Positions 3,647 to 41,455 of a DNA stretch of 64,000 bases are shown piece by piece. Every line of letters starts with the position of its first letter. The stretch's first letter is position 1. Source of the DNA: Bryobacterales bacterium (GTDB lineage: Bacteria > Acidobacteriota > Terriglobia > Bryobacterales > UBA6623); NCBI GenBank assembly GCA_028819575.1, contig JAPPLB010000051.1, positions 10,978-74,977 of the forward strand, given 5' to 3'. The notes below the pieces were generated by a model. That model saw only the letters and a program-made list of their open reading frames with translations, made no database searches and was not told the DNA's origin. Both the position numbers and the translations under genes were made by a program.

Positions 3647-3719
3647 CGAGACGATAGGCGCGTGCACGCTACGTACGCATAAGGCGGCTCGGTATCGACG
3701 AGACCCGGGCCAGCTGCGT

Positions 3720-3910
3720 AACCTGCTTTTATCACCACGCGGCGGGGTGAAGTGCGTGAGAGGGCCGTCAGGACGAGGCGCGAGCCGGGCGGAGGAAAAA
3801 GGCGCGCGCAGGCGTACGTGACCGTACATCGAGCACGGCAAGCAAGCGCAACGAAGTCATGGCGGTCGTGTCGCGTGTTTCTACCTTCGGGTGGTGAGGA
3901 ATGCAGGTTA
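3720..3910 (+). mobile_element. Family-1 MITE-like palindromic element, copy 1
   Basis: Termini TA|ACCTGCTTTTATCACCAC ... GGTGGTGAGGAATGCAGGT|TA. The interior is homologous to the other copies (GGCGAAGTGCGTGAGAGGGCCGTCAGGACGAGGCGCGAGCC...GAGCACGGCAAGCAAGCGCAACGAAGTCATGGCGGTCG). It is intergenic between convergent genes. Confidence 0.85.
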
Positions 3911-4058
3911 GCCATCGCCAAAGCTCTTGCGGCCCTCTCTACAAGTGCGAACCCACTTCCCATAGGAAGGACTCATCCGTCTGAGTGGCCGGACGAATTG
4001 TGCAGGTCGTTGGCAGTGTCACTGGCTGCCGATGGCATGTGCGTGAAGTGAGCCCCGG

Positions 4059-5195
4059 TTACGTGCCGAACAACCCCTTTAAGACACGTGCCGGCCAACT
4101 CAGCACATACCCCAGTCGAAACGTCGGGGAACGGAAGATCCGATATAGCGCGTCGGCATGTTTCCGCTTCAGATTCTCGATCTCCTCGTGCAGCTCGCGG
4201 TTGATTGTCACCAGCTTCCCGATCTCTTCGTGCTGCTCGCGATGGAGCGCCTGCAGCCTGTCGATCTCCTTTTCGTGCTCGCCGATACGCCAGTGGCAAC
4301 CTTCGATCACCAGCGAGAATTCCTTCTCCCTTTCGTAGAGAAACTTCATCTGCCGATCACGCCGCTGGACCGTTATCTTTAATTCGCCAGCATCCTCATT
4401 GCTCAACTTGTGTCCGGCGCGAAACTTGTCCGGCAGAGGTCGCGGCACATAGACCGTACTGTGGTCCGGCGCCGTCTGCTCTTTTGGACGTGATTTCGTA
4501 TAGAAATACACCGCGATCGAGCGGCGCGAGAGATCCTTCCTGTTCTCCGGCAAGTCGATCTTAGGGAACCCGTGCCAGGAGACCTCCGATGTCTCGAAGA
4601 GAACGCAATGATTCGCCAACGGCAAGTACGACTTCACGCGATCCGGCTTGTCGCGTTCCCACGGATCTGAGTGAACCTGCAACGAACCGCCCCATTCCGC
4701 CCTCCATGCCTCATTCAGAAAAAGAATGAGGTTCAGCCGCCGATGCCAACGATTCGTCGGGTGAAAGTTGAAGTCCACATGCGGATCGAGTTCCTGCCCG
4801 TGCCGATTATCGTGGGTCCCGCCACCCACGTATTCCGGGTCATAGAGCAGATTTGGAATGCCCGTGATCCTGCTGATCAGACCCAGCATATCCGGCGATG
4901 CGAAAAGTTCATCAAGCTGCCGGTATGCCTCGCCAAGTGGGGCAAGATTCTCATGAACAGCCTTGCTGCCTACTTCACCGTACTCGTTGAGCGCCTTGCC
5001 ATGGTCGAATGCCGGGAACTCGCGAATCAGCCGATCGAGGAAAGACGGTTCGACGAAGTTTTTGATAAGCACATGGGGAAACGGATCGGCCTTCCGAAAC
5101 TGCTCAGCGAGCAGAGGAACACGCTGCTGAAGATCGCGGGCAAGAATCGAAGTCATTCCGGCCTCATGGTTTCGTGCAGCAACGACCAATGTCAA
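4059..5195 (-). CDS. 2OG-Fe(II) oxygenase superfamily protein with a C-terminal coiled-coil extension
   Basis: N-terminus FPHVLIKNFVEPSFLDRLIREFP and His/Asp-rich core GGGTHDNRHGQELDPHVDFNFHP...WGGSLQVH are typical of prolyl-hydroxylase/Tpa1-like dioxygenases. The last ~90 aa are heptad-rich (EKEIDRLQALHREQHEEIGKLVTINRELHEEIENLKRK). The track start is TTG at 5195; ATG at 5156 is an alternative. Confidence 0.7.
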   Translation of the reverse strand: MTLVVAARNHEAGMTSILARDLQQRVPLLAEQFRKADPFPHVLIKNFVEPSFLDRLIREFPAFDHGKALNEYGEVGSKAVHENLAPLGEAYRQLDELFASPDMLGLISRITGIPNLLYDPEYVGGGTHDNRHGQELDPHVDFNFHPTNRWHRRLNLILFLNEAWRAEWGGSLQVHSDPWERDKPDRVKSYLPLANHCVLFETSEVSWHGFPKIDLPENRKDLSRRSIAVYFYTKSRPKEQTAPDHSTVYVPRPLPDKFRAGHKLSNEDAGELKITVQRRDRQMKFLYEREKEFSLVIEGCHWRIGEHEKEIDRLQALHREQHEEIGKLVTINRELHEEIENLKRKHADALYRIFRSPTFRLGYVLSWPARVLKGLFGT

Positions 5196-5210: not shown

Positions 5211-5404
5211 CTAGCCTGCATTTCTCACCGCGCGGCGAGGCGAAGTGCGTGAGAGGGCCGCCAGGACTAGGCGTAAGCCGGGAGGAGGGAAAAGGCGCGC
5301 GCAGGCGTACTTGAAAAGTACGTTGAGCACGGCAAGCAAGCGCAACGAAGTCCTGGCTGTCGTATCGTGTGCTTCGACCGTCGGGTGGTGAGAAATGCAG
5401 GCTA
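5211..5404 (+). mobile_element. Family-1 MITE-like palindromic element, copy 2
   Basis: CTAGCCTGCATTTCTCACC...GGTGGTGAGAAATGCAGGCTAG. It has perfect termini and TA on both flanks, and lies in a divergent promoter region. Confidence 0.9.
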
Positions 5405-5639
5405 GACACGGCCCCGGTTCCTGGTCTCCTGCTTTCCGAGAGCAGCTTGGTCTCAACCGGTCTCCGACATCGGACTTTCGCGACGGATTCGCCCTCACGG
5501 AAGAGTTCCACTCGCCCGTCTTGGTCATACTACATATTGCAGTCCTTGCACGCTTTCTCGATCTGCTCCTGACCAGGAAGGAGCAAAAGGGAGCTCTGCA
5601 AAGCCCTATCACCCCAAACAGATGAACTGAGCATCCCCT

Positions 5640-6986
5640 TTGCCCGACACTCCCCATCCCTTCACGTTGAAGCCGCATCGGACGTTCGTCGGCCTCTCCG
5701 CGCCTCTCCTCGTTTCCCTCGTTGCCGAGCCCCTCACCGGTCTGGCAGACACCGCCTTTGTCGCCCGCCTGGACGCTGTCGCCTTGGCAGGACTCGGTGT
5801 AGGAGCAGCCCTGCTCTCGAGCATTTTCTGGATGTTCAACTTTCTGGGAATCGGAACCCAAACCGAAGTTGCCCGCAGCGAAGGTAGCGGGGATATCGAA
5901 CACGCCCGGGTTGCGAATGTCCAAGCGCTCGGTTTGAGCGTCCTCATGGGCGCCGGTATTGGCGGGCTTGTTTGGCTGGTGGTCGATCCACTCGTGCTGC
6001 TCATGGGGGCTGATGGAAAAATCGCGACGGAGGCTCGCGATTACATCACGGTCCGGCTTCTCGGCGCTCCGGCCATTCTGCTGACGGTCGCCTCCTTCGG
6101 CACCCTCCGTGGACTGCAAGACATGCGATCCCCGATGTGGATTGCTTCCGGCCTCAACGTATTGAACATCGCCCTCGACCCGATTTTCATCTTCGGCTGG
6201 GGGCCCGTTCCCGCGATGGGTGTTGCCGGCGCCGCAGCCGCCAGTGTCATCAGCCAGTGGCTCGGTGCGGCTGCCGCAGTCACGGTCGCTATCATTCGGA
6301 TCGGCATCCCGGCTCGCGCCCATCTCTCGCAACTCGGCAAGCTCTTGAAAATCGGCGAGGAGCTTTTTATCCGCACCGCGGCCCTAAACTTCTTCCTTTT
6401 GCTCACCACCCGAGCGGCAACCGAAATCGGCGCCGATGCCGGGTCCGCCCATCAAGCCATCCGTCAAGTGTGGGCCTTCACCGCATTGTTTCTGGATGCC
6501 TTTGCTATCGCGGGGCAGAGCTTGGTTGCGTATTTCCTCGGAGCCGATGAATTTCAACAGAGTCGCCGCGTAGCCACCGTCGTCTGCCAGTGGAGTCTCG
6601 GCTGTGGAGTGGTGCTGGCGATGGTCATGCTCGCCTCGACGGGCCCGGTTGCCCGAGCACTCATCCCGGCGAGTTCCTACGAAGTGTTTCTTGTTCCGTG
6701 GATCATCAGTGCGTTCTCGCAGCCTGTCAGTGCGCTCTCGTTCGGCACTGACGGTGTCCACTGGGGAACAGGCGACTTCCGCTATCTGAGAAACGCGGTT
6801 CTCGTCGCTACCCTAGTGGGCGTCATCGGGCTTCTCTGGATCGATGAGACTAACCGCGCGGCCCTGACGCACACCTGGATCGTCACGGCCGTTTGGAACT
6901 CCATCCGGGCCTCGTTTGGCATCATCCGGATTTGGCCGGGTGTTGGAGCAGCCCCGCTTGCTGCGCGATTAGGCTGCAAAAGGTGA
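5640..6986 (+). CDS. MATE family efflux transporter (DinF/NorM-like)
   Basis: 448-aa polytopic ORF with the MATE-like N-terminus LSAPLLVSLVAEPLTGLADTAFVARLD and roughly 12 hydrophobic segments. The start is TTG and uncertain. Confidence 0.8.
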   Translation: MPDTPHPFTLKPHRTFVGLSAPLLVSLVAEPLTGLADTAFVARLDAVALAGLGVGAALLSSIFWMFNFLGIGTQTEVARSEGSGDIEHARVANVQALGLSVLMGAGIGGLVWLVVDPLVLLMGADGKIATEARDYITVRLLGAPAILLTVASFGTLRGLQDMRSPMWIASGLNVLNIALDPIFIFGWGPVPAMGVAGAAAASVISQWLGAAAAVTVAIIRIGIPARAHLSQLGKLLKIGEELFIRTAALNFFLLLTTRAATEIGADAGSAHQAIRQVWAFTALFLDAFAIAGQSLVAYFLGADEFQQSRRVATVVCQWSLGCGVVLAMVMLASTGPVARALIPASSYEVFLVPWIISAFSQPVSALSFGTDGVHWGTGDFRYLRNAVLVATLVGVIGLLWIDETNRAALTHTWIVTAVWNSIRASFGIIRIWPGVGAAPLAARLGCKR

Positions 6987-10848: not shown

Positions 10849-10850
10849 CC

Positions 10851-11034
10851 TGGCCTGCATGTCTCACCACGTGGCGAGGCGAAGTGCGTGAGAGGGCCGT
10901 CAAGACGAGGCGCGAGCCGCTTGGCGCGCGCAGGCGTACTTGAACAGTACATCGAGCACGGCAAGCAAGCGCAACGAAGTCATGGCGGTCATACCACGTG
11001 CTTCGGCCGTCGGGTGGTGAGAGATGCAGGCTAG
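10851..11034 (+). mobile_element. Family-1 MITE-like element, copy 3 (short-centre variant)
   Basis: TGGCCTGCATGTCTCACCACGTGG...GGTGGTGAGAGATGCAGGCTAG. It begins 2 nt after the stop of 9712..10848. Its right-end CTAG contains the stop codon of the minus-strand gene 11031..11990. Confidence 0.9.
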
Positions 11035-11990
11035 GAACTGAATCTATTCTCGAAATCGAGGAAGATCAGGAACTGGCTTGAGATGTCCGTCTCATGCTTC
11101 TTCAGTGAGGGCGAGTAGGTCTTGACGAGGATGCGGCGCTTCTCCGGTTCGAATCGAAACGTCCGCATCCAGCCTTCTCCGCCATTTTTGCGGAATTGGT
11201 AGTCGGCCAGGATCTCGAAGACGTCTCGAGAGGCGTTGTTGGTGGACACCTGAAACCACTCGCCGCCAAACTTGCCCCAGTGGCCGCACACCACCATGAA
11301 AATCTGCGGGTTTGGCTTGATCAGCTTTTGCCAGATCGCTTCTCCGGAATTGCCGATATCCTTGCGGTAGAAAGGCGCCCGGTCGCGCGAACGCGTCTGG
11401 TCGTGCAAGTAGATATGGGTGGAAACGATCGTTGGCACACCTTCGTGCTTCTCTAGCACTGACTTCGCCCATGCAATGGCGGGATCCGGCACGTCCGCCT
11501 CGAGGTGCATGATCAGGAACTCCCGGCCCCCGCCGTTGAAGACCTGGTAGGAATTGATACCGTTCTCCGATGCGCCCCGATACCACTCTTCGGTCCGGAA
11601 GCGCTGGGGGCCAAACCAGCGGCGGAAGGCCTTCGCCCGTCCCCGCGGATCGCCGCGGTCGTAGTCGTGGTTGCCGATGGCAACGCCCCAAGGCACAATG
11701 CCGTCCAGTCTCGACATGGCGCCATCGGCCACTCGCCACTCCCTCTCGACTTCGTCGCCGCTTTGAACGATGTCGCCGATGTGGGTCACGAAGGCGATGT
11801 TTTCCTTCTTCGCGTTGGCGGCGATCCACTTGGTTTGGTCGTCGAAAAACTTGGGAAACTTTTCACTGTAGAACTGGGTATCGGGCAGCATCACGAACGT
11901 GAATGCGCCCGGCTCGGTCTTGGCGACGGCTCCCCATACAAACAGGCCGCCGATCAGCGCCAAGACGACAAGCGGATCGACCTTACGCAT
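11031..11990 (-). CDS. Calcineurin-like metallophosphoesterase, exported
   Basis: Motifs FVMLPDTQFY, THIGDIVQSGD, GNHDYD and VCGHW, plus an N-terminal signal-anchor segment. Confidence 0.8.
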   Translation of the reverse strand: MRKVDPLVVLALIGGLFVWGAVAKTEPGAFTFVMLPDTQFYSEKFPKFFDDQTKWIAANAKKENIAFVTHIGDIVQSGDEVEREWRVADGAMSRLDGIVPWGVAIGNHDYDRGDPRGRAKAFRRWFGPQRFRTEEWYRGASENGINSYQVFNGGGREFLIMHLEADVPDPAIAWAKSVLEKHEGVPTIVSTHIYLHDQTRSRDRAPFYRKDIGNSGEAIWQKLIKPNPQIFMVVCGHWGKFGGEWFQVSTNNASRDVFEILADYQFRKNGGEGWMRTFRFEPEKRRILVKTYSPSLKKHETDISSQFLIFLDFENRFSS

Positions 11991-12062: not shown

Positions 12063-12275
12063 CCTGCATGTCTCGCCACGCGGCGTACTTGCTAAATCGC
12101 CTCCTTCACTCCTCGGGTCATGAATCACGGCCTTTCCGGCTCACCTACCGTAAGACATTTCTAGTGGAGCAAACCAGGCCGCCACCAATGGTTTTCACGA
12201 ATCACGAGACACGAGACACGAATCACGGCCTTTTACCGGTATTCGCCCGACTGTCGAGCCGGTGCAAGCAGCAAG
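12063..12275 (+). mobile_element. Family-1 element, degenerate mosaic variant (copy 4) with a heptamer tandem repeat
   Basis: The left terminus is CCTGCATGTCTCGCCACGCGGCGTACTTGC and the left arm is deleted. The interior is homologous to 55196-55345. Heptamers CACGAAT/CACGAGA/CACGAGA/CACGAAT/CACGGCC lie at 12196-12230. The right terminus is degenerate, so the end coordinate is approximate. Confidence 0.6.
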
Positions 12276-13884: not shown

Positions 13885-14088
13885 CTAGCCTGCATTTCTC
13901 ACCACGTGGCGAGGCGAAGTGGGTGAGAGGGCCGTCAGGACGAGGCGCGAGCCGGGCAGAGGAAAAAGGCGCGCGCAGGCGTGCTTGAACCGTGCGTTGA
14001 GCACGGCAAGCAAGCGTTGCGAAGGAAAAGCGAAGTCATGGCAGTCGTATCGTGTGCTTCGACCGTCGGGTGGTGAGAAATGCAGCGT
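13885..14088 (+). mobile_element. Family-1 MITE-like element, copy 5
   Basis: CTAGCCTGCATTTCTCACCACGTGG...GGGTGGTGAGAAATGCAGCG|TA. It carries a small internal insertion relative to the other copies. Confidence 0.85.
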
Positions 14089-14367
14089 ACGGGTAGTCTC
14101 GCCCGCGTTTGAGTGTACGACGCGAACATCTTCAGGCTGGATCCTTCGTCCCCGGACCCTGATCACCGGCCGGCGAAGTTTGCTCGGGTTCGCAGGGAGT
14201 TGATACAATTCCATTCTTGATGAGCCGAGCCTGAGGTTCTGTAGATCGGAACACACCGGTCAGGTTCGATCCTTCCACCGTTTCCTGGGCGCAACCCGAA
14301 ACAGAATTTGGGAAGACGCCGCTGTGTCTGGAAACGGAGGGGCCTCCAGCCACAAACGGGAGCGTGC

Positions 14368-15612
14368 ATGAGTTCATACAACGGGGTTGATGTACCGTCG
14401 AATGGAGATACCATTCAAGTTGAATCAGGGAAGTTCATCACCCCGGACAACCCGATTATCCCGTTCATCGAGGGTGACGGTACCGGCCGGGACATTTGGA
14501 AAGCGTCGCGTCGGGTTTTCGACGGTGCGGTCGAGGCGGCCTACGGTGGAACCCGGCAGGTCGCCTGGTTTGAGATCTTCGCCGGGCAGAAGGCCTTCGA
14601 TCACTTCAACTCGTGGCTGCCCGACGATTCCCTTGCCGCCATCCGGGAGTTCCATATCGCCATCAAGGGACCGCTCACCACGCCCGTCGGCGGTGGGATC
14701 CGCAGTCTCAACGTTGCGCTGCGCCAGTTGCTCGAACTGTATGTCTGCATGCGGCCGGTCCGTTATTTCCCCGGGGTGCCGTCGCCGGTGCGGAATCCCG
14801 AGAAGCTTGATGTCGTGATCTTCCGGGAAAACACCGAAGATGTCTATGCCGGGATCGAGTGGCAGCAGGGCAGCGCCGAGGTGGCTAAGGTGATCGGCTT
14901 CCTCAACGGCGAGATGGGCCGGAAGATCCGCCTGGATTCCGGCGTTGGAATCAAACCGATCAGCATCACCGGCTCGAAGCGCTTGGTGCGCCGCGCGATC
15001 CAGCACGCCATCGACAACAATCGCCGCAGCGTAACCATGGTGCACAAGGGGAATATTCAAAAATTTACCGAAGGCGCATTCAGGGATTGGGGATATGACC
15101 TGGTCAATGAAGAGTTCGCGGACCAGTGTGTGATCGAAGGTGAGTTCGCGGGCGATCCGCCGCCGGGAAAAATTGTCGTCAAGGACCGTATTGCGGACTC
15201 GATGCTCCAGCAAGTGCTGCTGCGTCCCGCCGAGTACGACGTGATAGCGACGACAAACCTGAACGGAGACTATCTGTCCGATGCGTGCGCGGCGCAGGTG
15301 GGCGGACTGGGCATGGCTCCCGGAGCCAACATCGGCGACGCGCACGGCGTCTTCGAGGCGACGCACGGCACGGCTCCGAAATACGCCGACAAGGACGTGA
15401 TTAATCCGTCGAGCGTGATTCTGTCCGGCGCGATGATGTTCCGCTCCATGGGCTGGACGGAAGCCGCGGACAGGATCGAATCCGGTATCACCGAAACCAT
15501 TCGCCAGAAGCGTGTCACTTACGATCTGCACCGCCTGATGGAAGGCGCCACGAAAGTGAAGACCAGTGAGTTTGCTTCGGCGATCATTGAGAACATGTCG
15601 CCTCAGGTCTAG
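14368..15612 (+). CDS. icd: NADP-dependent isocitrate dehydrogenase
   Basis: Start revised to ATG 14368 ([19 protein letters not shown]...[15 protein letters not shown]). The sequence has IDH-type motifs throughout ([27 protein letters not shown]). The TAG stop at 15610-15612 lies in the terminal CTAG of the next repeat. Confidence 0.9.
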
Positions 15613-15790
15613 CCTGCCTTTCTCACCACGCGGCGAGGCGAAGTGGGTGAGAGGGGCGTCAGGACGAGGCGCGAGCCGCTTGGCGCGCGCAGGCGTACTT
15701 GAACAGTACGTTGAGCACGGCAAGCAAGCGCAACGAAGTCATGGCGGTCATATCGCGTGCTTCGACCGTTGGGTGGTGAGAAATGCAGGC

Positions 15791-15793
<3 letters not shown>
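15609..15793 (+). mobile_element. Family-1 MITE-like element, copy 6 (short-centre variant)
   Basis: CTAGCCTGCCTTTCTCACCACGCGG...GGGTGGTGAGAAATGCAGGCTAG. The left CTAG supplies the icd stop codon. Confidence 0.9.
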
Positions 15794-17550: not shown

Positions 17551-17860
17551 TCTCAACAGTTAGCGAGGACACCTGTGCCCCGACGGCGTGCAGGTGTTTT
17601 CTGCTTTCTGGGCCAAAACGAGCAGCAACCGCGGATTGCCCGGCAAAGCAGGATAATTTCACCGCTTCCGGCTTGCCGTTGATATCGAAGAGCCCCACGG
17701 CCCGAAGAAATAACGCTCTCTCAGCTTTACTTCCTCCTGTATCCAAAGAGCGCTACTGGCCTCAGTGGATATTCCCGCCTCGCTGATGTGAAACCCACCG
17801 GGTCAAGCGGTGTTGACACCGATCCGGGTGTTTCCCGCTTGTATGATCCGCCTCGGGCCG

Positions 17861-17977
17861 GCAAGCAAGCGCAACGAAGTCCTGGCGGTCGTATCGCGTG
17901 CCGACCGTCGGGTGGTGAGAAATGCAGGTCAGGCCCCGCCAATGGTTTTCACGAATCACGAGACACGAAACACGGCC
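17861..17977 (+). mobile_element. Family-1 right-half fragment (copy 7) fused to the heptamer-repeat module
   Basis: GCAAGCAAGCGCAACGAAGTCCTGGCGGTCGTATCGCGTGCCGACCGTCGGGTGGTGAGAAATGCAGGT is followed by AGGCCCCGCCAATGGTTTTCACGAATCACGAGACACGAAACACGGCC. No left arm is present. Confidence 0.7.
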
Positions 17978-18005
17978 TTTGACTTCTTGTAGGGATGTCC
18001 CGTCC

Positions 18006-20393: not shown

Positions 20394-20500
20394 GATGGGG
20401 TTCTCCTCTGTGGGTTCTGGCTGTATGGTGGGCCAAACGCAGGAAATATGCAAGGCCCCCGGCGGAAATTGCAATCGTGTCGACCAGCAAGATGCTCCCC

Positions 20501-20684
20501 TGGCCTGCATTTCTCACCACGCGGCGAGATGAAGTGCGTGAGAGGGACGCCAGGACGAGGCGCGAGCCGCTTGGCGCGCGCAGGCGTACTTGAACAGTTC
20601 GTCGAGCACGGCAAGCAAGCGCAACGAAGTCCTGGCGGTCGTATCGCGTACTCCGGCCGACATGCGGTGAGAAATGCAGGCTAG
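20501..20684 (+). mobile_element. Family-1 MITE-like element, copy 8 (short-centre variant)
   Basis: TGGCCTGCATTTCTCACCACGCGG...GCGGTGAGAAATGCAGGCTAG. It lies in a divergent promoter region. Confidence 0.9.
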
Positions 20685-24715: not shown

Positions 24716-24977
24716 CAGTCCGTGGTAAAAGTCCCGTGGGAGGCGCGGCGGGCTCCTGCGGTCGTTCGGCGCGGAGTGAAGAGGATGGCGATCCGGGTGA
24801 TCTCCTCCGACGAACGACAAAGCTGACGAGCGCAAATGTCCGTCGCCCGAAGGGTTACGCGCCACTTCCGTTCGGCTGTGCGCAGAGCGAGATGCCGCCT
24901 TCCTGAAGCGGCTAGACAGTACGCAATCGGTCCCGGGGCGCGTAACGCCACCTGCGTGACTTTTACCACGGGCTGCC
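24713..24977 (+). mobile_element. Family-2 TIR element, copy 2 (or a structured RNA)
   Basis: TA|GCAGTCCGTGGTAAAAGTC ... GACTTTTACCACGGGCTGC|CA. The closing helix matches at 17 of 18 positions (24716-24733 with 24958-24975). Nested internal helices include GTTACGCGCC/GGCGCGTAAC and GTCGTTCG/CGAACGAC. The TAG stop of 23174..24715 is the element's first 3 nt. Confidence 0.55.
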
Positions 24978-25065: not shown

Positions 25066-25142
25066 CGGGGCGTGGCGCAGCCTGGTAGCGCGCCTGCTTC
25101 GGGAGCAGGAGGTCCGGAGTTCAAATCTCCGCGCCCCGACCA
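25066..25142 (+). tRNA. tRNA-Pro (anticodon CGG), CCA encoded
   Basis: The cloverleaf was folded by hand. Acceptor CGGGGCG/CGCCCCG, D arm GCGC-AGCCTGGTA-GCGC, anticodon arm CCTGC-TTCGGGA-GCAGG, T arm CCGGA-GTTCAAATC-TCCGC approx., 3' ACCA. Confidence 0.9.
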
Positions 25143-27286: not shown

Positions 27287-27363
27287 TGGTGGGCGGTCCG
27301 AGACTCGAACTCGGGACCTCCTGCTTGTAAGGCAGGCGCTCTAACCAACTGAGCTAACCGCCC
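27287..27363 (-). tRNA. tRNA-Val (anticodon UAC), CCA encoded
   Basis: The reverse complement GGGCGGTTAGCTCAGTTGGTTAGAGCGCCTGCCTTACAAGCAGGAGGTCCCGAGTTCGAGTCTCGGACCGCCCACCA folds into a complete cloverleaf. The anticodon loop is CTTACAA. Confidence 0.92.
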
Positions 27364-27365
27364 TG
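27325..27365. repeat. attL core: 41-bp direct repeat (tRNA-Val nt 1-39 plus 2 nt upstream)
   Basis: TTGTAAGGCAGGCGCTCTAACCAACTGAGCTAACCGCCCTG is identical to 37397-37437. The flanking bases differ on both sides. Confidence 0.9.
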
Positions 27366-27419
27366 CTCTTTCCTTTCAACAACTTACACCCTTGTCTCAT
27401 GGTTCTAAATCGTGCAATT

Positions 27420-27468
27420 GTCAAGAAACTGTCAAGAATTTGCTCTAACTGGCCAGAGCCGTCAAGAA
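27420..27468. promoter_or_regulatory. Candidate arm-type integrase-binding repeats (GTCAAGAA x3)
   Basis: GTCAAGAA occurs at 27420, 27431 and 27461, with 11-bp spacing for the first two. Related GTCAAAA/GTAAAGAA motifs lie at 37254, 37262 and 37273 next to attR. On the minus strand they read TTCTTGAC(A), so they could alternatively be -35-like boxes. Confidence 0.3.
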
Positions 27469-28596
27469 ATGCGTGTCGTGCTCACCGGCCTGCCGGTCCA
27501 GCTTCGCAAGGGCCTCACGCATCATCGACAGATTTGCTTGGCTGTACCGCTTGAAAACCGCAGCGTCGGACTGCCGGAGCATTTGTGTCACGAAACGATC
27601 CGCAACACCACCAGCGCTCAAACGCGTTGCAAAGGTGTGTCGAAGCTCGTACAACGCGAAGTGCGGCAAGCCCGCCTTCTGCAATGCGCGATCCCACATC
27701 TTGCGAACAGTCGTCAAGGGCCTGCCCGTAGACGTGTTCGGAAACAGGAATTCGGAATCGAGACTCGCCCTCATCTGCGAAACGAACGCTTCGCGGGCGC
27801 GATCCGTCATCGGCATATCCGCTACTCCGGCCACAGTCTTTGAATCTGGTATGTGTATCAGTCGGTTGGCCAGATCAACCTGAGTCTTCCTCATCGGTAT
27901 CAACTCGCGATAGGGACGGAGCCCCGTTTCGCACATGATCGTGATGATGTTGCGAAGGTGTACAGGTGCAGCAGCTTCCAGTCGTTCCTGTTCCGATGCT
28001 GTCAGGACGTGCGGTTTGCGAGTCGTGCCGGACAGCTTCACGGGAAACTCAGCCCCGTTGCACGGGTTCACAAGCAGCCGCCGTTTCTTAACCGCTTGAT
28101 TCAGGATGTGTCTGAGAACACGAAACTCCTGATTCACCGTTGACGGTTTCAGCCGACTGCCCAGTCTGATGCCGAGACTCGTATGAACGCGCTTCCGGGT
28201 GTTCAGGCGGGTCCTCAAGTACACTTCTACATCGTCGGTTGTTATGTCTTGTAGTCTCTGCATACCGAATCGCGGTCTGAGGAACTTTAGGGCGTTCTCG
28301 TTCGCAGCGTGTGTTTTCGGGCTGCATGACGGCGGTTTGGATCGGTTCGCAAGGAACCAGTCCGCCCACTGGTTGAACGTGAGCAAGCCGCTCTGCTCAA
28401 CACCCGGCAGCCGACCCTCATCACGGTCCACCAATCGCCGACGCAACACCTTCTGCGCTTCGGCCTTGTCTCTCTGACCTGTCGATTCCTGTCTGTACCT
28501 CCCTTCATCGTCCCAGTAGCCCATCTGCCAAACGCTTGAATCTTTGCGTAGGTACAGGCTCCCGTTGTCGTTACGTGGTCTTCCAACTCTACTCAT
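27445..28596 (-). CDS. int: Tyrosine recombinase / phage integrase
   Basis: C-terminal catalytic motifs: GLRPYRELIPMRKTQVDL (Arg), LYELRHTFATRLS (H-x-x-R) and FKRYSQ (Tyr region). The N-terminal SAM-like domain is present. The ATG at 28596 overlaps the TGA of the upstream excisionase ORF (ATGA). Confidence 0.9.
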   Translation of the reverse strand: MSRVGRPRNDNGSLYLRKDSSVWQMGYWDDEGRYRQESTGQRDKAEAQKVLRRRLVDRDEGRLPGVEQSGLLTFNQWADWFLANRSKPPSCSPKTHAANENALKFLRPRFGMQRLQDITTDDVEVYLRTRLNTRKRVHTSLGIRLGSRLKPSTVNQEFRVLRHILNQAVKKRRLLVNPCNGAEFPVKLSGTTRKPHVLTASEQERLEAAAPVHLRNIITIMCETGLRPYRELIPMRKTQVDLANRLIHIPDSKTVAGVADMPMTDRAREAFVSQMRASLDSEFLFPNTSTGRPLTTVRKMWDRALQKAGLPHFALYELRHTFATRLSAGGVADRFVTQMLRQSDAAVFKRYSQANLSMMREALAKLDRQAGEHDTHFLTALAS

Positions 28597-28799
28597 TGTC
28601 TGATTCCTCCATCGACATGAAACTGTTTCAGCCACTCGGCCAGTTCCGACTGGCGGAACCGGATCGCGCGGCCCATCATGCGGTAGTGAGGAATCTGCTT
28701 TCGCTCAACATGAGCATACACCAACGACGGGGAGACGCACAGGTACCGCGCAGCAGTCTTGACGTTGATGAAGGGTTCGGGTGATGCTGTTACTGGCAT
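28593..28799 (-). CDS. Excisionase-type helix-turn-helix DNA-binding protein (AlpA/Xis-like)
   Basis: 68 aa. INVKTAARYLCVSPSLVYAHVERKQIPHYRMMGRAIRFRQSELAEWL matches the HTH_17/excisionase pattern. It appears translationally coupled to int. Confidence 0.75.
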   Translation of the reverse strand: MPVTASPEPFINVKTAARYLCVSPSLVYAHVERKQIPHYRMMGRAIRFRQSELAEWLKQFHVDGGIRQ

Positions 28800-29017
28800 T
28801 TCGGTCTATATCTATTATTCCCACTCCGGCTGTTAAGCATTCTCTACAAGGCGTTTTAACGTGCTTAAGCGGCGTTTCTGGTGGTAAGGCCCTTTTCCGT
28901 GCCGTTCGCCGCTTACGCGCCAGCTACGGGCGAGGTTTTAACGCATTTCGGGCGCTGGAAACAGAAAAACGGCAAACCGGATGCCCGATCTACCGTCTTT
29001 CAAAAAGAAACAAGATA

Positions 29018-29212
29018 TTAAGGCGTCTTTTTGGCTCCAATGAAACGCGGCGCTTTTCCTTCTGGTCCTTGCAGTACAAGGGACAGAATTGAGTCCGCTT
29101 GATCGTGGATCGATGTAGCCTCAAAGTCCTGGTGCCTGTTGGCCCTTGAAGTTTCCCAAACGTGTTTCAGAACAGCCCTAAAGTCGCGTACCTGTGATTC
29201 TTCTGGAAACAT
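29018..29212 (-). CDS. Small island-borne hypothetical protein
   Basis: 64-aa ORF preceded by a strong SD (AAGGAGAT, 9 nt upstream of the ATG). No recognisable domain. Confidence 0.45.
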   Translation of the reverse strand: MFPEESQVRDFRAVLKHVWETSRANRHQDFEATSIHDQADSILSLVLQGPEGKAPRFIGAKKTP

Positions 29213-29353
29213 GATTACTCTATCTCCTTCATTGCTATTATACCGACTCCGGTTATACTCCGTCCCTGTTTTTTAACCAACAGGCAACCCCAAGGTGGTG
29301 GACATAAACACGGTATCTGTAATGGGTACCGGGTTTTTCTGTGGCACGGATTA

Positions 29354-29381
29354 TTGACAACTCTCGGATTCTGTAGATAAT
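29354..29381 (+). promoter_or_regulatory. Near-consensus sigma70-type promoter candidate inside the ORF-poor island region
   Basis: TTGACA (29354-29359), a 16-nt spacer, then GATAAT (29376-29381). It points rightward toward the terminator at 29863-29899. Confidence 0.4.
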
Positions 29382-29862
29382 GATAATAGTTATCGCCGGT
29401 TTTCTGGCATAAGTCTTGCGTTGAGGGACTGCGGATCAGGGCGTAAGGCAGGCTGTGATACATAGGTGTACGGCGTATGTATCGACTGATGGGTAGTAAA
29501 GGGGTGACACCCGTACACACTTGGATCGAACGGGAGAGAGTGGTCACGCGAAGGTCGGTAACGCGATATAGTAGTCCCGCCCAATGCTCCGAACCGGCAA
29601 CGGGGAATGATACTAAGACTCATTCTACGATCAACCCTGGCGCGCTACGGCGCTACAGGGGAAGTCGATCTTTGAATGATACCCTATAGAAAGGCGAAAA
29701 CCCTGTACTATTGTTATGTCCCAGCTAATTCTTTACAGCGTTGCACCTTGTCAAGGATAACATCAGCGGTGGCCTGTTATATACGCCAGTACCAGTACTC
29801 AGCGTTTACGCTTTTGGAGTACGGTATAATGGAAACATACCCCACTACCAAGCAGTCCCAAG

Positions 29863-29899
29863 CACCCCGGTAATTCGATCTACCGGGGTGTTTTACTTT
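29863..29899 (+). terminator. Rho-independent terminator
   Basis: CACCCCGGTA-ATTCGATC-TACCGGGGTG is a perfect 10-bp stem, followed by TTTTACTTT. Confidence 0.65.
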
Positions 29900-30108
29900 G
29901 CGTGCTACTACCCGTACCGGCGCTTATATACTCGCTACTAGCCTAACGGCGCACTAGGCGGTAGCCGATGCGCCTGTATCTGTGGTAATACAATGCCACC
30001 CTATGAGGTTATATGGCATAATTAGAGCACAAACATAATCTGAAGCCATGGCAAGCGCCCATATATCAACTCGATACGTGGGCGCTTGTCTATTTGAGGT
30101 GCCAAGTC

Positions 30109-30136
30109 TTGACATTTATTGATTATCGTTTACACT
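30109..30136 (+). promoter_or_regulatory. Candidate promoter upstream of the head/packaging operon
   Basis: TTGACA (30109-30114), a 16-nt spacer, then TACACT (30131-30136). It lies between hairpins at 30052-30088 and 30159-30197. Confidence 0.3.
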
Positions 30137-30369
30137 AAGAATATCAGGGAACATAACGCCGGGTAGTGGTCTATTAACTTCTTTCCCCACTACCCGGTAA
30201 CAAGTTTTGGGAATGTAGGTTAGGTCCGCTATACCACGTAATTAGTCTGCGGTCTGGTCCCCGACAGGCTTCCTTCTTCCCATAGAAACCGGCGTATTGT
30301 ACGGCACAATGCGCCGGTCTCGTAATATGGCACCAAGAGAAACAGAACAGCTCCTGGGGACCGATAGGG

Positions 30370-31800
30370 GTGGGTAAATCAACTACGATGCATTTGAAGC
30401 CGTTTCAAAACAGGTTCATCAAGTCCAGTCTGAGACCTGGAATAGATACGGTTGTCTGTTCTCTGCCGCGTGGAAACGGCAAGAGTTTCCTAGCAGCACT
30501 ACTCGCAAAGCGCTCTATTGATCCTTCAGACAGTCTGTTTAGACCCGGTACCGAGTCGCTGCTATTCGCAGCGTCTCTGAACCAAGCACGTAGAACTGTC
30601 TACGCACAGCTACTCAGCATGGTGGACCATTCCAAGTACCGGATAGCCAACAGCGCGAACCATTGCCACATACTGCACACAGACACCAATACCAAACTGT
30701 CCGTTCTACCTTGCAATGCGAAAACCGCTCAGGGTTTGGGAGTCAACAACCCGTGTGTATTCGTAGACGAGCCCGGAGCTATGGAGACGCTAGCGGGTGA
30801 AATGCTGAACGATGCACTGACCACAGCGCAAGGGAAGCCCGGAGCGGATATGCGGGTTTGGTACTTCGGAACGCTCGCACCCAATCCTAGCCAATGGTGG
30901 GTAGACCTGGCGCTAGGCGGTTCCGATCCGAGTACCTACTGTTACACCCTACAAGCGAACCCTAAGCGATGGTCAGACCTGAGAGAGATTCGGCGTGTAA
31001 ACCCGTTGATGTACGCGTTTCCTGAGTCCAGAAAGACTCTCAAGAGCGAGCTAGACAAGGCACTATCAGATAGCCGTCTAGCCGCACGTTTCAAGTCGTA
31101 CCGATTAAACCTACCGACTGCCGAAGAGTCCACAATGCTATTGCAGGTGGAAGACTGGCAGCGCGTCTGCCAGCGCCGTGTCCCGCCGCGTGAGTCGCAA
31201 CCTGTTGTTGGTCTCGATTGCGGACAGGGCCGCGCATGGAGCAGTGCTGTAGCGGTCTATCCCAACGGACGTACAGAGTGTAGAGCTATCGCCCCTGGCG
31301 TTCCTGACATAGCCGTACAGGAGCGGAGAGACCGCGTATCTAGTGGCACGTATCAACGCCTGATTGATGTAGGTGTATTGCGGATCGCACACGGTAGGCG
31401 CGTTCCTTTGGTCTCCGATCTGGTAGAGCTAGCGGCAGATTGGAATCCTGCCGCGTTCATTGCGGATCATTTCAGGCTAAACGAGGTACGAGACGCTGCA
31501 CCCAGTAAACCGATTATCACGCGTCGTACCTTGTGGAGCGAAGCGAGCGAAGATATACGCGGATGCAGGCGGCTATGTCTTGATGGAAATATCAGCGTCT
31601 CAGACGAATCAAAGGGGCTACTACAGCATAGTCTAAGCGTTGCAAAGGTAGAGAACGACGACGCGGGAAACAGTCGATTAGTGAAAAAGAAACGGGATAA
31701 CAGTACCCGTGATGATGTAGCTTGCGCCTTTGTATTGGCAGCAGGTGTCATGAGTAGAGCTAGGGGACCGAAGCCGTTACGTTATGCAGTCGCACGCTAA
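30370..31800 (+). CDS. Phage terminase large subunit
   Basis: LKPFQNRFIKSSL followed by Walker A LPRGNGKSFLAALLA. An acidic Walker B/coupling region VFVDEPGAM is present, and the C-terminal nuclease-like part contains DDVACAF. The start is non-ATG per the track. Confidence 0.85.
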   Translation: MGKSTTMHLKPFQNRFIKSSLRPGIDTVVCSLPRGNGKSFLAALLAKRSIDPSDSLFRPGTESLLFAASLNQARRTVYAQLLSMVDHSKYRIANSANHCHILHTDTNTKLSVLPCNAKTAQGLGVNNPCVFVDEPGAMETLAGEMLNDALTTAQGKPGADMRVWYFGTLAPNPSQWWVDLALGGSDPSTYCYTLQANPKRWSDLREIRRVNPLMYAFPESRKTLKSELDKALSDSRLAARFKSYRLNLPTAEESTMLLQVEDWQRVCQRRVPPRESQPVVGLDCGQGRAWSSAVAVYPNGRTECRAIAPGVPDIAVQERRDRVSSGTYQRLIDVGVLRIAHGRRVPLVSDLVELAADWNPAAFIADHFRLNEVRDAAPSKPIITRRTLWSEASEDIRGCRRLCLDGNISVSDESKGLLQHSLSVAKVENDDAGNSRLVKKKRDNSTRDDVACAFVLAAGVMSRARGPKPLRYAVAR

Positions 31801-32065
31801 ATTGAGTTCTAGACCGTGGGCAAGACTACGCCGAAGAGTATTACAGAAAGACGGGTATAGGTGTTCGGTTTGTGGTGGAGTTAGACAGCTAGAGGTACAT
31901 CATATAATCCCGCGCCATATTGCGCCGGATAAAAAGTATCAAATTGAAAACTTACAGGTAATTTGTAGGTCCGACCATGAAGACATGCACACCAAACAAA
32001 AGATCGCGCCGGACGCATACGCTTGGCGCTTATATATGAAAGATGGAGTGAAAACTAATGAGTAA
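31784..32065 (+). CDS. HNH endonuclease
   Basis: CSVCGGVRQLEVHHIIPRHI...NLQVICRSDHEDMH carries the HNH/zinc-finger motif. It overlaps the TerL 3' end by 17 nt. Confidence 0.8.
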   Translation: MQSHAKLSSRPWARLRRRVLQKDGYRCSVCGGVRQLEVHHIIPRHIAPDKKYQIENLQVICRSDHEDMHTKQKIAPDAYAWRLYMKDGVKTNE

Positions 32066-33308
32066 TAAAACTAAGCTGGAAGTCCGGCAGCGGGAAATTA
32101 GAGCCAAGTTAGCCGAACTAAGCAACATCGAAAGTCTAACAGACGAACAACGCACAGAAATGCAGACTCTAACAAAGGAGTCTATTGATAACGACGCAAA
32201 GCTAAATGCTCTTGCCGTCACCGAACAGGAACCACAGGAAACCACTACCGATGCTGAGTCTAACGAGATCAGGGAGCTACGAAAAAAGTCTAGAGTATCT
32301 AACTACGTCGTTGCCGCTAGCGAAATGCGGAGCGTTGACGGTGCGGAACGTGAGTTCAACGCGGCTCTAGGTCTTCAACCGGGAGCATTCCCTATGGAGT
32401 TGCTAGCACCGTCTGAAGACGAAATGCGAACGACTACCGATACGGATACCACGTCTAATCAGCGCCGCTGGATTGATCGTCTGTTTAGCGCGTCTATGGC
32501 GCGTCGTATGGGCGTTTCGTTCGAAAGCGTCCCTGTTGGTCAGGCCAGCTACCCAGTTACGACTGCGGGTGCTACAGGTGCGCAACGCGGGCGAGACGAA
32601 GCGGCTACCGCTGCGGCGTGGAGTGTTGGCGTTACGGAGCTAAAGCCTACCCGGAACACGGTACACCTATCATTCACTATCGAGGATGCTGCGCGTCTTC
32701 CTGGACTAGAGCAGTCACTTCAGCGCGATATGCGGTCCGCTCTAATGGACTCGATTGATACTTCGCTTTTCATTGGTGACAACGGCGCTAATGAGAATGG
32801 CGCGGATATCACAGGGTTTAAGACTGCAAGTATCACAGAGACCACTTTGACTCAAGCTAACAAAGTCAAGGCGGATAAGATCGTGGAAGCGTACGCGGCG
32901 TTCATTGATGGTAAACACTGCGAAGGGTTTAACGAAATGAACATCGTTGCTAGCGTGGGTTCGAACGCTCTATGGCTGTCTACGGTTCATAACAGCGCGG
33001 TTGATAACCAGACTATTGCTCAGTATATGCAAGCTAGCGGTATGTCCTGGATGACACGCGGCGGCATTGATAGTGCGACTGGAAATGGCAAATTCGGCGC
33101 TTATGTTGGTCTCGCTAGGGGAATACAAGGCGCTGCGGTTGCGGCGGTTTGGAGCAATGGTACTTTGATCCGCGACCCCTATACCGACGCTAACAAGGGC
33201 GCTGTTAAGGTTACACTAAACTATTTGTGGGACTTCGGCATTCCGCGTACTAGCAACTTTAAGCGTATTAAATACGTTAGCAAACCATGCCGGGAAACAA
33301 TCTATTAG
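32058..33308 (+). CDS. Phage major capsid protein, HK97-like with N-terminal coiled-coil (delta-like) region
   Basis: 416 aa. The N-terminus KTKLEVRQREIRAKLAELSNIESLTDEQRTEMQTLTKE is typical of HK97-family capsid proteins. A Gly/Ala-rich beta-rich body follows. Confidence 0.75.
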   Translation: MSNKTKLEVRQREIRAKLAELSNIESLTDEQRTEMQTLTKESIDNDAKLNALAVTEQEPQETTTDAESNEIRELRKKSRVSNYVVAASEMRSVDGAEREFNAALGLQPGAFPMELLAPSEDEMRTTTDTDTTSNQRRWIDRLFSASMARRMGVSFESVPVGQASYPVTTAGATGAQRGRDEAATAAAWSVGVTELKPTRNTVHLSFTIEDAARLPGLEQSLQRDMRSALMDSIDTSLFIGDNGANENGADITGFKTASITETTLTQANKVKADKIVEAYAAFIDGKHCEGFNEMNIVASVGSNALWLSTVHNSAVDNQTIAQYMQASGMSWMTRGGIDSATGNGKFGAYVGLARGIQGAAVAAVWSNGTLIRDPYTDANKGAVKVTLNYLWDFGIPRTSNFKRIKYVSKPCRETIY

Positions 33309-33754
33309 TTTCTGGACCCGCAGGCGGCGGCAAGTCGCAAGCTGTCCTGGAGCTATTAAACGAGTCCGACGAAGTAACAGCGGTGGCCGACTTCCAAAGT
33401 CTGTACGCCGCTGTTGCTCAGGTTTCACGCGATCCAGAAACCGGGAAGTACCCTCTGAGGGACGACCGGCTACTACCGCTAATCGAGTTTACCCGGCGCG
33501 GAATTATCCAATCGGCAAGACGGCGCGGCATTCGGGTAATTGCGACCAACTCTGATGGCAGCCCAGAACGGCGCGGCTACCTGTTGGAACTGTTAGGGCC
33601 GGACGCAGCAGAACGGATCGTTGATCCTGGTGAAGCGGTAGCAATCGCTCGCCTAGCGTCCGAAGACGGTACGTTAGAGCCTGCCTGTAGACAAGCACTC
33701 AACAGGTGGTACACGCGACATTACCGGGACAATCCACGGAGACCACGGAGATAG
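33287..33754 (+). CDS. Small P-loop NTPase embedded in the head module
   Basis: 155 aa with Walker A LLVSGPAGGGKSQAVLEL and a basic C-terminal tail (RHYRDNPRRPRR). It overlaps the capsid gene 3' end by 22 nt. Confidence 0.6.
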   Translation: MPGNNLLVSGPAGGGKSQAVLELLNESDEVTAVADFQSLYAAVAQVSRDPETGKYPLRDDRLLPLIEFTRRGIIQSARRRGIRVIATNSDGSPERRGYLLELLGPDAAERIVDPGEAVAIARLASEDGTLEPACRQALNRWYTRHYRDNPRRPRR

Positions 33755-33758
33755 AGCA

Positions 33759-34241
33759 ATGGACGAAATTAGATGTAGTGTGGACTTTCTCCCTGACGAA
33801 ACTCGACAAGGGCCGGGACGTATCGTCGGAACCATTCTCCGTTTCGGCGAACAGATCGTACACACCAAAGGACCGGAACAGTTCGAAGCGCGGTCTCTGG
33901 CGTTCTCTGATGATGGTGTTGTGCTGTACGACTCGCACGACGTAGAGCCGCGCAAACCCGTACATATCTTTACTCCGATACAAACTGATACCGAAGCACG
34001 GATAGATGCACTACTCCCTGATACCCCAGCGGGTAGGCGGCTAGCCGAACGCTTCAGGAACGGTATATACAAGGGTTTGAGTATCGAGTTTAGGGCCGTC
34101 TCCGAACGCTATGTAGACGGCGTTAGACGCGTCTCTAAGGCGTTTCTAGGCGGCGTTGCAGCGGTAGAGTCCCCTGCATACCAAACGCCAGTTGAAATAC
34201 GCTCTAAGCGCTCTAGCAGGGAGATTTACTCATGGCTGTAG
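33759..34241 (+). CDS. Prohead serine protease, HK97 (S78/U35) family
   Basis: The His region is YDSHDV and the Ser region is YKGLSIEFRA. The C-terminal pattern LGGVAAVESPAY is typical of the family. Confidence 0.7.
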   Translation: MDEIRCSVDFLPDETRQGPGRIVGTILRFGEQIVHTKGPEQFEARSLAFSDDGVVLYDSHDVEPRKPVHIFTPIQTDTEARIDALLPDTPAGRRLAERFRNGIYKGLSIEFRAVSERYVDGVRRVSKAFLGGVAAVESPAYQTPVEIRSKRSSREIYSWL

Positions 34242-34519
34242 ACCTGACTGCCGAACAACTCAGGTCCGCTTTAAGGCTAGGTGACAGTGCTACCGAAACC
34301 GCTGAAGCGGAACGGTTGTTAACTTATGCAAAGGCTGTGATCCCTGCACGCGCTCCGGGAGCTTCAACAGTTGTACATACTGAAGCAGCAATCCGACTGT
34401 GCGCCTACCTGTACGACAAACCCTTTGCCAGTCGTGGCACGAGCTACGCTAACGCGCTACGCAACTCGGGCGCTGGGGACATCCTGTTGCCGTGGTACGA
34501 ACCAAAGGTGTCTAAGTAA
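34232..34519 (+). CDS. gp6-like head-tail connector (adaptor) protein
   Basis: 95 aa. Assignment rests on position and on the TAEQLRSALRLGDSATETAEAERLLTYAKAVI pattern of Phage_connect_1-type proteins. Confidence 0.5.
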   Translation: MAVDLTAEQLRSALRLGDSATETAEAERLLTYAKAVIPARAPGASTVVHTEAAIRLCAYLYDKPFASRGTSYANALRNSGAGDILLPWYEPKVSK

Positions 34520-34848
34520 TGCCCAAAGACTCAATCGTATTAGACCGCAGGGTAACGCTTATTCAGCCTACCGTTAGTGAGGTTAGGGACTCCTTGAATA
34601 ATCCTAAACCTGCCGATCCTATAGAGCATGAAGTATGGGCGAACCGAGAAGACACAGGCGGCAAAGAAACCGTTACTACTCGGCTAATGGTCTCTCAAAC
34701 AAACACGGTTTTTACGATCCGATACAGACAGGATATTGATAATACATGGAGCATAGTGGACCGTGGCGTTACGTTCGGTATCGAGTTCATATTAGAGGTA
34801 GGGCGGCGTCTTTACTTGGAAATACATACGAAGTCAAACAAGAATTAA
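34519..34848 (+). CDS. Head-closure / head-tail joining protein
   Basis: 109 aa. The pattern RVTLIQP...VWANRED...FTIRYRQDI...TFGIEFILEVGRRLYLEI matches the Phage_H_T_join pattern. Confidence 0.6.
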   Translation: MPKDSIVLDRRVTLIQPTVSEVRDSLNNPKPADPIEHEVWANREDTGGKETVTTRLMVSQTNTVFTIRYRQDIDNTWSIVDRGVTFGIEFILEVGRRLYLEIHTKSNKN

Positions 34849-35880: not shown

Positions 35881-35893
35881 CCGTCTGACTATT

Positions 35894-36079: not shown

Positions 36080-36176
36080 CAGTTTCCCCTATCTCACTCA
36101 TCCCAACAGGTCTTCTACGGCTCATTCTCCATCTTGAGCACCAACGAACCTTTGATGAGTTTCAGAATGTATTATT

Positions 36177-41403: not shown

Positions 41404-41455
41404 AGTTCCCAGGGCGTGTTACAATCGGCGTCCGAGATCGTTCCGGTTGACTCTC

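Follow-up and report, generated by a model that had tools for sequence, protein, structure and literature searches.

We analyzed a window of 64,000 nucleotides from a Bryobacterales bacterium (Acidobacteriota; assembly GCA_028819575.1, contig JAPPLB010000051.1, positions 10,978 to 74,977), in which a short palindromic repeat recurs between the genes. The copy that served as the starting point lies at 5211-5405 of the window and is flanked by the divergent genes 4059-5195(-) and 5640-6986(+, MatE). The repeat family is a miniature inverted-repeat transposable element (MITE), a non-coding imperfect palindrome of ~177 bp with inverted ends of ~17-20 bp (CCTGCATTTCTCACCAC). Its terminus TAGCCTGCATTTCTCACCAC matched the 64-kb window 20 times with up to 3 mismatches, compared with 0.00 matches expected from shuffled sequences. 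This bore out the very high density of a non-autonomous element with terminal inverted repeats that an earlier note, made from the window alone, had reported. Eleven orientable copies, two termini-only minis and one solo end were counted (Table 1). The window holds 26 termini, which amounts to a density of 4.1 per 10 kb. All copies listed in the earlier note were recovered by repeat finding and alignment, with coordinates that were off by a few bases at most, and its termini-only derivatives reappeared as the minis and the solo end. As it had also observed, no DDE transposase is encoded in the window; the sole recombinase is a phage-type integrase within a low-GC island.

Measured from the terminal CC to the terminal GG, the main class spans 177 bp, or 185 bp with its flanks. 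The family is a mosaic with size classes of 177, ~187, 201 and 272-280 bp as well as minis of 34-49 bp; elements of the 280-bp class were present in two loci from other genomes (L030 and L007). The terminal inverted arms comprise 21-27 nt and are 89-95 % complementary. With 34-280 bp the elements are too short for a transposase, and no conserved open reading frame (ORF) was found, so that they have no coding capacity. The element is palindromic from end to end and carries a central hairpin, GCGTACTTGAACAGTACG. Both features had been described earlier and were borne out by fold z-scores of -7.4 (DNA) and -8.8 (RNA), with none of 200 shuffles folding equally well. Mean column identity between the window copies and those from Bryobacterales metagenome-assembled genomes (MAGs) was 95 %. 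Covariation in the stem was weak: besides the flank positions it recurred only at pair 86/102 (8 copies), and the few other stem pairs that were altered on both sides were so in one or two copies each.

The copies lie between long ORFs, in line with the intergenic position noted earlier, and several abut stop codons. At six of the 26 window termini, the TAG of the duplicated CTAG serves as the stop codon of an adjoining ORF that is 300 or more codons long. Since TAG can be read from CTAG in either direction, many copies sit exactly on stop codons, which are kept by the duplication. Across loci, 31 elements were placed between convergent genes and 17 between divergent genes. Relatives of the MatE gene next to the named copy (74-76 % identity) have kept the neighbouring gene and lack the element, with a spacer of ~143 bp compared with 444 bp in the window. 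Short-read Logan assemblies of this locus are interrupted within the right end of the named copy. The window sequence is also contained in contig JAPPIQ010000083.1 of MAG GCA_028820545.1, a contig that recurs in an ENA metagenome assembly. Among the collected loci, no orthologues of window segments of at least 350 bp were found.

Distribution across genomes

Genomes representing one species each were scanned for the exact 20-mer terminus, and the matching loci, taken as 8-kb blocks, bear L numbers. The terminus was found in more than 105 such blocks, compared with ~1 expected by chance according to our estimate (20-mer, 596 Gb, both strands). Most of the matches listed belonged to MAGs labelled Bryobacterales (Acidobacteriota), including complete ~6-Mb chromosomes. 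At least eight Bryobacterales MAGs, complete chromosomes among them, contain the element, and the blocks examined held at least 205 termini on chromosome OZ242366.1 and at least 116 on OZ241991.1. Extrapolated to a whole genome, the window density would mean a copy number of the order of one thousand.

Roughly one locus in four came from MAGs labelled as other phyla. In some of these MAGs, the same ~20-bp termini and CTAG flanks enclose unrelated interiors in elements of ~175-240 bp. Carriers on long contigs were Planctomycetota MAG loci L052, L094, L098 and L101 and Singulisphaera loci L061 and L062; carriers on shorter contigs were L021 (Thermoanaerobaculia) and L095 (Verrucomicrobiota). Nearly all elements tested from these phyla folded as end-to-end hairpins (z of -7 to -16), and the hairpin was only partial in the Verrucomicrobiota element (L095) and in one Singulisphaera copy (L062). 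Since the interiors are unrelated and the ends and target are held in common, the interior is lineage-specific and the ends and target are not. The earlier notion of a lineage-specific family thus stands for the interior, which belongs to these Acidobacteria, but not for the ~20-bp termini and the CTAG target. Some of the tiny contigs from other phyla that bear the terminus may be binning errors. A viral vehicle for spread across phyla was rejected, as only 2 IMG/VR contigs carried the terminus. Identity with the rhizobial RIME was likewise dismissed: no match was obtained in 72,556 PLSDB plasmids, a collection expected to include rhizobial megaplasmids, nothing relevant was found in the literature, and the host is acidobacterial.

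Target site, duplication and candidate partner

The target of insertion is a palindromic tetranucleotide, YTAR, mostly CTAG, and its 4 bp are duplicated. Flank statistics were drawn from 158 independent copies, taken from the window and from loci L005-L109, every one of which has unique flanks. Among the left/right pairs we counted CTAG/CTAG (49 copies), TTAG/TTAG (7), CTAA/CTAA (7), TTAA/TTAA (5), ATAA/ATAA (1) and CTAC/CTAC (1). At CTAG sites, a TA duplication next to fixed element ends and a duplicated CTAG are the same in sequence, so that only non-CTAG copies discriminate between them. These provided 21 independent direct-repeat pairs. Moreover, the left and right flanks co-varied across the 158 copies both at position 1 (Fisher p = 4.6e-8) and at position 4 (p = 7.5e-7). 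Variants in which the TA of the flank was changed to CA or TG (CCAG, CTGG) were frequent.

Comparison of filled and empty sites pointed to the same duplication. Element L013_5556 reads CTAG-element-CTAG, whereas its five paralogous empty sites show a single CTAG (4/5) or CAAG (1/5). Element L009_5571 is bounded by TTAG on both sides compared with TTTG in two paralogues, and its right copy begins with the T of the target. A third pair is formed by L049, which is filled (CCAG...CTAG), and L076, which is empty (CTGG). The internal GGACTAGGCG of another copy had received two independent insertions. Empty sites contain one YTAR 4-mer and filled sites two. The TA that the earlier note had recorded on both flanks is therefore real but incomplete, being the core of a flanking CTAG/YTAR 4-mer. 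The IS630/Tc1-mariner TA duplication that it had proposed did not hold up, because flank positions 1 and 4 are also duplicated and the empty sites carry one YTAR.

A candidate parent was found in locus L005, where a 1,726-bp unit, CTAG CCCGCATTTCTCACCAG...CTGGTGAGATATCCGGG CTAG, contains one ORF of 487 aa. This ORF matched PF13701 (DDE_Tnp_1_4) with E = 1.5e-119 and 399.6 bits (cut-off 34.7). Homologues of the insertion sequence (IS) with 88-94 % identity occur on two element-rich Bryobacterales chromosomes, OZ241991.1 and OZ244625.1, and in three identical copies on a contig of 5.63 Mb. One homologue, P0008, carries the NCBI name 'IS1380 family transposase [Bryobacterales bacterium]', and its IS was also present as a 1,731-bp contig from SRR10996926, which belongs to the sample series holding the window's genes. 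The partner IS measures 1722-1734 bp and its transposase 481-487 aa. Chromosomal copies read CTAG CCCGGATCTCTCACCAG...CTGGTGAGAAATGCGGG CTAG, one copy being flanked by CTAG/CTAA. Short inverted ends beginning with CC and a direct repeat of 4-5 bp are hallmarks of the IS1380 family; the IS ends (CCYGSAT...) and the 4-bp duplication agree with them. As a separate observation, L005 itself (JAPOWV010000036.1, 2,335 bp) unites a Bryobacterales-type hairpin element and the IS1380-type IS in a Gammaproteobacteria bin and was probably mis-binned.

The MITE terminus agreed with the right end of the IS at 15/17 positions and with the left end at 13/17, and both MITE ends resemble the IS right end. The difference between left and right IS ends (CCCGGAT... 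vs ...ATGCAGG) was mirrored in the elements of Singulisphaera and Verrucomicrobiota. A Binatia MAG and an unrelated JGI metagenome contained relatives of the transposase (67-73 % identity), and there too the ends were the same and the flanks were CTAG/TTAG. The MITE was rejected as a deletion derivative of the IS: similarity stops after ~17 bp, so that the MITE is a partner sharing the termini only. Other candidates for an autonomous parent were discarded as well. Units of 1,620 bp turned out to be normal copies with an IS110-family insert in the central loop, and the remaining long terminus pairs (L017, L030, L040, L050, L079, L108) were composites with other repeats or ordinary genes. The full-length IS630-like element anticipated earlier was not encountered; a PF13701 protein is encoded by every autonomous element that was met with these ends, whole genomes not having been searched exhaustively.

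A PDB sequence search with the transposase returned no relative. The AlphaFold model (predicted local distance difference test, pLDDT, 72; predicted template modelling score, pTM, 0.76) was submitted to a fold search, which ranked Tn5 transposase first (E = 6e-6, template modelling score, TM, ~0.44) and piggyBat as a weak second (E = 0.015, TM ~0.25). A piggyBac-like enzyme was therefore set aside, although IS1380 transposases serve as the piggyBac outgroup (PMC10813416). We infer cut-and-paste chemistry by a Tn5-like DDE enzyme.

Taken together, we consider it probable (about 0.8), judging from the sequences, that the Bryobacterales MITE is tied to an IS1380-family IS with YTAR target and 4-bp duplication and is moved in trans by its transposase. 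The PF13701 DDE transposase of the resident 1.72-kb IS would act in trans on the MITE ends, and insertion into YTAR would duplicate 4 bp and leave an element that seems to be flanked by TA. The family member IS1247 measures 1672 bp and is reported to have a 5-bp direct repeat (PMC3281130). IS1380-family transposases reportedly tend to accept surrogate ends and to mobilise adjacent DNA (PMC9330008), which makes a repeated birth of minis plausible.

Several observations weigh against this assignment. The link consists of matching ends, matching target and co-occurrence, and no transposition was seen. Identity between IS and MITE is confined to ~17 bp, the interior being at random level, and the IS is rare: it is absent from the 64-kb window, and the ~0.9 Mb of element-rich DNA examined yielded a single copy. 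At the named copy, the orthologous empty site is too diverged for base-level alignment of the junction. The flanks themselves are not always symmetric: the outer base differs between the two sides in 17 copies (CTAG/CTAA 10, TTAG/CTAG 7) and the inner base in 1, and a plain 4-bp duplication leaves the asymmetry at non-CTAG sites unaccounted for. For instance, the nested element L018_5140 reads CTAG...CTAA in a host CGAA/CTAA site where CTAA/CTAA was expected. At non-CTAG sites, G/C is thus retained next to the element in roughly every second insertion. Carry-over of donor flank bases or variable cleavage could cause the asymmetry. Finally, the local uniformity of orientation described below is not expected of a double-strand cut-and-paste transposon.

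Two other partners come into question. A MITE mobilised by an IS630/Tc1-mariner enzyme, with duplication of TA only and fixed ends G...C, would agree with the TA on both flanks of most copies, with the common xTAG/CTAy pairs (the 10 CTAG/CTAA and 7 TTAG/CTAG copies), with the nested CTAG...CTAA insertion and with the preference of IS630 itself for CTAG. It is at odds with the co-variation of left and right flanks at positions 1 and 4 and with the 21 independent non-CTAG direct repeats, and also with the empty TTTG whose filled counterpart is TTAG...TTAG, where the right copy starts with the T of the target and not with the C of the element. The autonomous elements found with matching ends all encode PF13701 transposases, and no IS630-type element with these ends was met in ~1 Mb of element-rich DNA (a partial check), which leaves this mechanism very improbable. 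Members of the IS5 group use a YTAR target and duplicate 4 bp, as was observed here. Nevertheless, these termini were not found around any IS5-type element, and they fit the IS1380-type IS at 15/17 positions, an IS that uses CTAG in three divergent lineages; an IS5-family partner likewise has only a very slight chance of being correct.

Strand asymmetry and co-orientation

The two strands of the element differ in folding energy. For the copy at 15609-15793, the plus strand folded at -58.2 and the minus strand at -43.6 kcal/mol, and the plus strand was the more stable one in 85/85 copies, by 26 kcal/mol on average. The asymmetry is caused by G·T wobble pairs in the hairpin. The Thermoanaerobaculia family has the one-strand bias in common with this one, and it is absent from the Planctomycetota families. 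Furthermore, the copies are co-oriented: orientation was identical in 11/11 orientable window copies, and 8-kb blocks with several copies were uniform in 13/14 cases on OZ241991.1 (permutation p = 2.5e-5) and in 17/17 on OZ242366.1 (p <5e-6), that is in 30/31 blocks in total. Runs of the same orientation extended to 21 copies, with several switches within tens of kb. Both the strand asymmetry and the co-orientation are statistically solid. As a cause of the co-orientation, the direction of neighbouring genes was rejected (element orientation relative to the neighbouring gene was 27 vs 18, p = 0.23), as were the GC skew of the 8-kb blocks (p = 0.15 and 0.38, a noisy measure) and local duplication or hopping, since copies of the same block were no more similar than distant ones (0.075 vs 0.060).

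The leading idea for the co-orientation is a replication-linked polarity of insertion or loss. Such polarity is known for single-strand transposons (IS200/IS605); if true here, it would be the first case in an IS1380-related element of the DDE type. In its full form, the idea is that of a polar hairpin transposon with a one-strand structure, whose insertion or survival would be set by a directional property of the neighbourhood, most plausibly the passage of the replication fork. A hairpin on the lagging-strand template would then lead to domains of co-oriented copies, the termini-only minis would be products of slippage or deletion, and the asymmetric target duplications may follow as well. 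We regard this extended proposal as rather doubtful.

It is also conceivable that the family is abundant mainly because its hairpin serves the host, in the form of RNA or single-stranded DNA, for instance as a terminator or mRNA-stabilising structure in the manner of REP, ERIC or Correia elements, with transposition being the means of spread. The uniform strand bias (85/85 copies) would fit such a role, as would a per-column identity of 95 % across several species when the flanking DNA is at 82-89 %, the position at gene ends and stop codons with an excess of convergent over divergent neighbours, and the end-to-end hairpin that recurs in nearly all of the independent families despite their unrelated interiors. 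The independence of orientation from gene direction (p = 0.23) argues against a role as sense RNA, and the scarcity of compensatory changes outside pair 86/102, the lack of a matching Rfam family and the missing one-strand bias in the Planctomycetota families also speak against a host function, which we consider improbable. Local segmental duplication instead of transposition could be invoked for the high local density of 26 termini in 64 kb. However, each of the 158 copies is set in flanks of its own with target duplications, copies are distributed over whole 6-Mb chromosomes and over several species, and neighbours are no more alike than distant copies, so that the likelihood of this explanation is close to nil. 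The genome-wide mobility favoured in the earlier note was thus upheld by the 158/158 unique flanks and by the occurrence in at least eight Bryobacterales MAGs.

Nested elements, neighbouring features and known systems

In six copies, an IS110-family element of ~1,435 bp (410-aa ORF, PF01548 and PF02371) is inserted in the central loop, GCGTACTT^...^TGAACAGTAC, with identical position and orientation in all six (Table 1). An Rfam search with a copy carrying this insert gave nothing at E <= 1. In L053, a different copy contains a second IS110-type element (345 aa), and in L110 a third adjoins the IS1380-type IS.

Table 1 Copies of the hairpin element in the window and copies elsewhere that bear the IS110-family insert
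Feature	Locus	Coordinates	Strand	Element	Flanks (left / right)	Remarks
Copy	Window	3718-3911	+	3722-3907	GTAA / TTAG	
Named copy	Window	5211-5405	+	CCTGCATTTCTCACC...GGTGAGAAATGCAGG (5215-5401, 187 bp)	CTAG / CTAG	
Copy	Window	10850-11034	+	canonical 177 bp	CTGG / CTAG	right-hand CTA = TAG stop of gene 11031-11990(-)
Degenerate long variant	Window	12059-~12260	+			left terminus at 12063; right terminus unrecognisable; interior 81 % match to 55193-55331
Copy	Window	13885-14090	+	198 bp	CTAG / GTAC	
Copy	Window	15609-15793	+	canonical 177 bp	CTAG / CTAG	orientation reference; left TAG = stop of gene 14308-15612(+)
Right half only	Window	17859-17932	+		flank TCAG	followed by second-repeat fragment at 17934-17980
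Copy	Window	20500-20684	+	canonical 177 bp	CTGG / CTAG	
Subfamily-2 copy	Window	45903-46091	+	181 bp		usual ends and left arm, different right inner module; right flank TCA = TGA stop of gene 46088-47476(-)
201-bp size-class copy	Window	52508-52716	+		CTAG / CTAG	extra GC-rich module
Termini-only mini	Window	54186-54227	.	34 bp (54190-54223)		left TAG = stop of gene 52801-54189(+)
Long variant	Window	55100-55379	+	272 bp	TTAG / TTAA	subfamily-2 with extra ~90-bp second-repeat module
Termini-only mini	Window	56619-56665	.	39 bp (56623-56661)		left TAG = stop of gene 55402-56622(+)
Solo degenerate terminus	Window	62547-62565	-			adjoins TAA stop of gene 62563-63561(-)
IS110-bearing copy	L024	6303-7922				
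IS110-bearing copy	L071	63-1682				
IS110-bearing copy	L079	4243-5862				
IS110-bearing copy	L085	2230-3839				
IS110-bearing copy	L096	2510-4129				Bryobacterales OZ242366.1
IS110-bearing copy	L096	4846-6465				Bryobacterales OZ242366.1

The hairpin element is often joined by a second short repeat module (...GACATTTCTTCTGGAGCGAA CTAG GCCCCCGCCAATGGTTTTCACGAATCACGAGACACGAA...), which is either fused to it or nested in it. This module was observed in the window at 12082-12220, 17934-17980 and 55193-55331 and in the flanks of L112 and L113, and two full-length IS1380-type copies have inserted at its internal CTAG. A separate repeat family of ~260 bp is represented at 24716-24975 of the window, ~90 bp upstream of the tRNA gene at 25066-25139, and also in L012, L107, L040, L026 and L009, with 85-89 % identity between genomes; in L013, the hairpin element has inserted into one copy, at the only CTAG present there.

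The low-GC island (~52 %) extends over 27290-37437. A tRNA gene, 27290-27363(-), lies at its border, and the two borders are marked by a perfect 41-bp repeat of the 3' part of the tRNA (27325-27365 = 37397-37437). Encoded in the island are the phage-type integrase (27445-28635) and, at 30370-31800, a terminase-like protein; a portal-like match at 34849-35880 was weak and fell below the Pfam cut-off. In appearance the island is a small prophage or satellite. Within the island, neither a two-ended copy of the element nor a 20-mer terminus at up to 3 mismatches was detected. A tandem array of three paralogous genes occupies 40375-43290; neighbours in the array are ~77 % identical over 300 nt (repeat families D6 and D10).

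The association described here would constitute a new link between a MITE and an IS, with a prolific MITE tied to IS1380 elements, which are related to piggyBac on the prokaryotic side and form a family of poorly known transposition chemistry. A limited literature search revealed neither a published MITE tied to the IS1380 family nor a description of this repeat family. From Acidobacteriota to Planctomycetota, the ends of this IS clade are conserved and its target is strictly CTAG/YTAR, and the hundreds of natural insertions document how targets are chosen and duplicated. In practical terms, the element breaks short-read assemblies, may mislead the binning of uncultured genomes (sponge- or coral-associated by their names) and affects gene calling where it sits on stop codons. 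The one-strand hairpin together with the co-orientation would, if linked to replication, be an unexpected property of a DDE transposon, and the loop-homing IS110-type element offers a natural target for the study of site-specific (bridge-RNA-type) recombinases.

The architecture resembles that of the Correia and ERIC elements, as the earlier note had remarked, yet the resemblance does not extend to homology, since no Rfam family matched; at gathering score, Rfam recognised two tRNAs only in the window. With bacterial MITEs in general, such as Correia of Neisseria and the IS630- and IS5-related ones, our element has in common the small size without coding capacity, the terminal inverted repeats, the target-site duplication, the high copy number, the mostly intergenic position, the ends common with an autonomous IS and the potential to form a hairpin over its whole length. 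It differs from them in its IS1380-family (PF13701) partner, in a target of 4-bp YTAR instead of TA, in having only ~17 bp in common with the IS, and in a hairpin that is strongly one-stranded, with copies that are locally co-oriented. The partner IS in turn is similar to other members of the IS1380 family (IS1380, IS1247, ISEcp1, ISPme1) in its single PF13701/PF01609 transposase, its length of ~1.7 kb, its short inverted ends beginning with CC and its short target duplication. What sets the clade apart from the family at large is its strict choice of a palindromic CTAG/YTAR target, of which 4 bp are duplicated; moreover, its ends are conserved across phyla, and hundreds of hairpin minis accompany it. 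The eukaryotic piggyBac relatives of the IS1380 family likewise duplicate a palindromic 4-bp xTAy target, TTAA there and YTAR here, but the predicted fold of our transposase ranks Tn5 first and piggyBat a weak second. REP and BIME elements are landing pads for IS110-family elements (IS621, ISPpu9/10). An IS110-family element at a fixed site of the repeat, here the central loop of six copies, is the feature they share with our family, in which, by contrast, the host repeat is a DDE-type MITE with target duplication and is not associated with RAYT.

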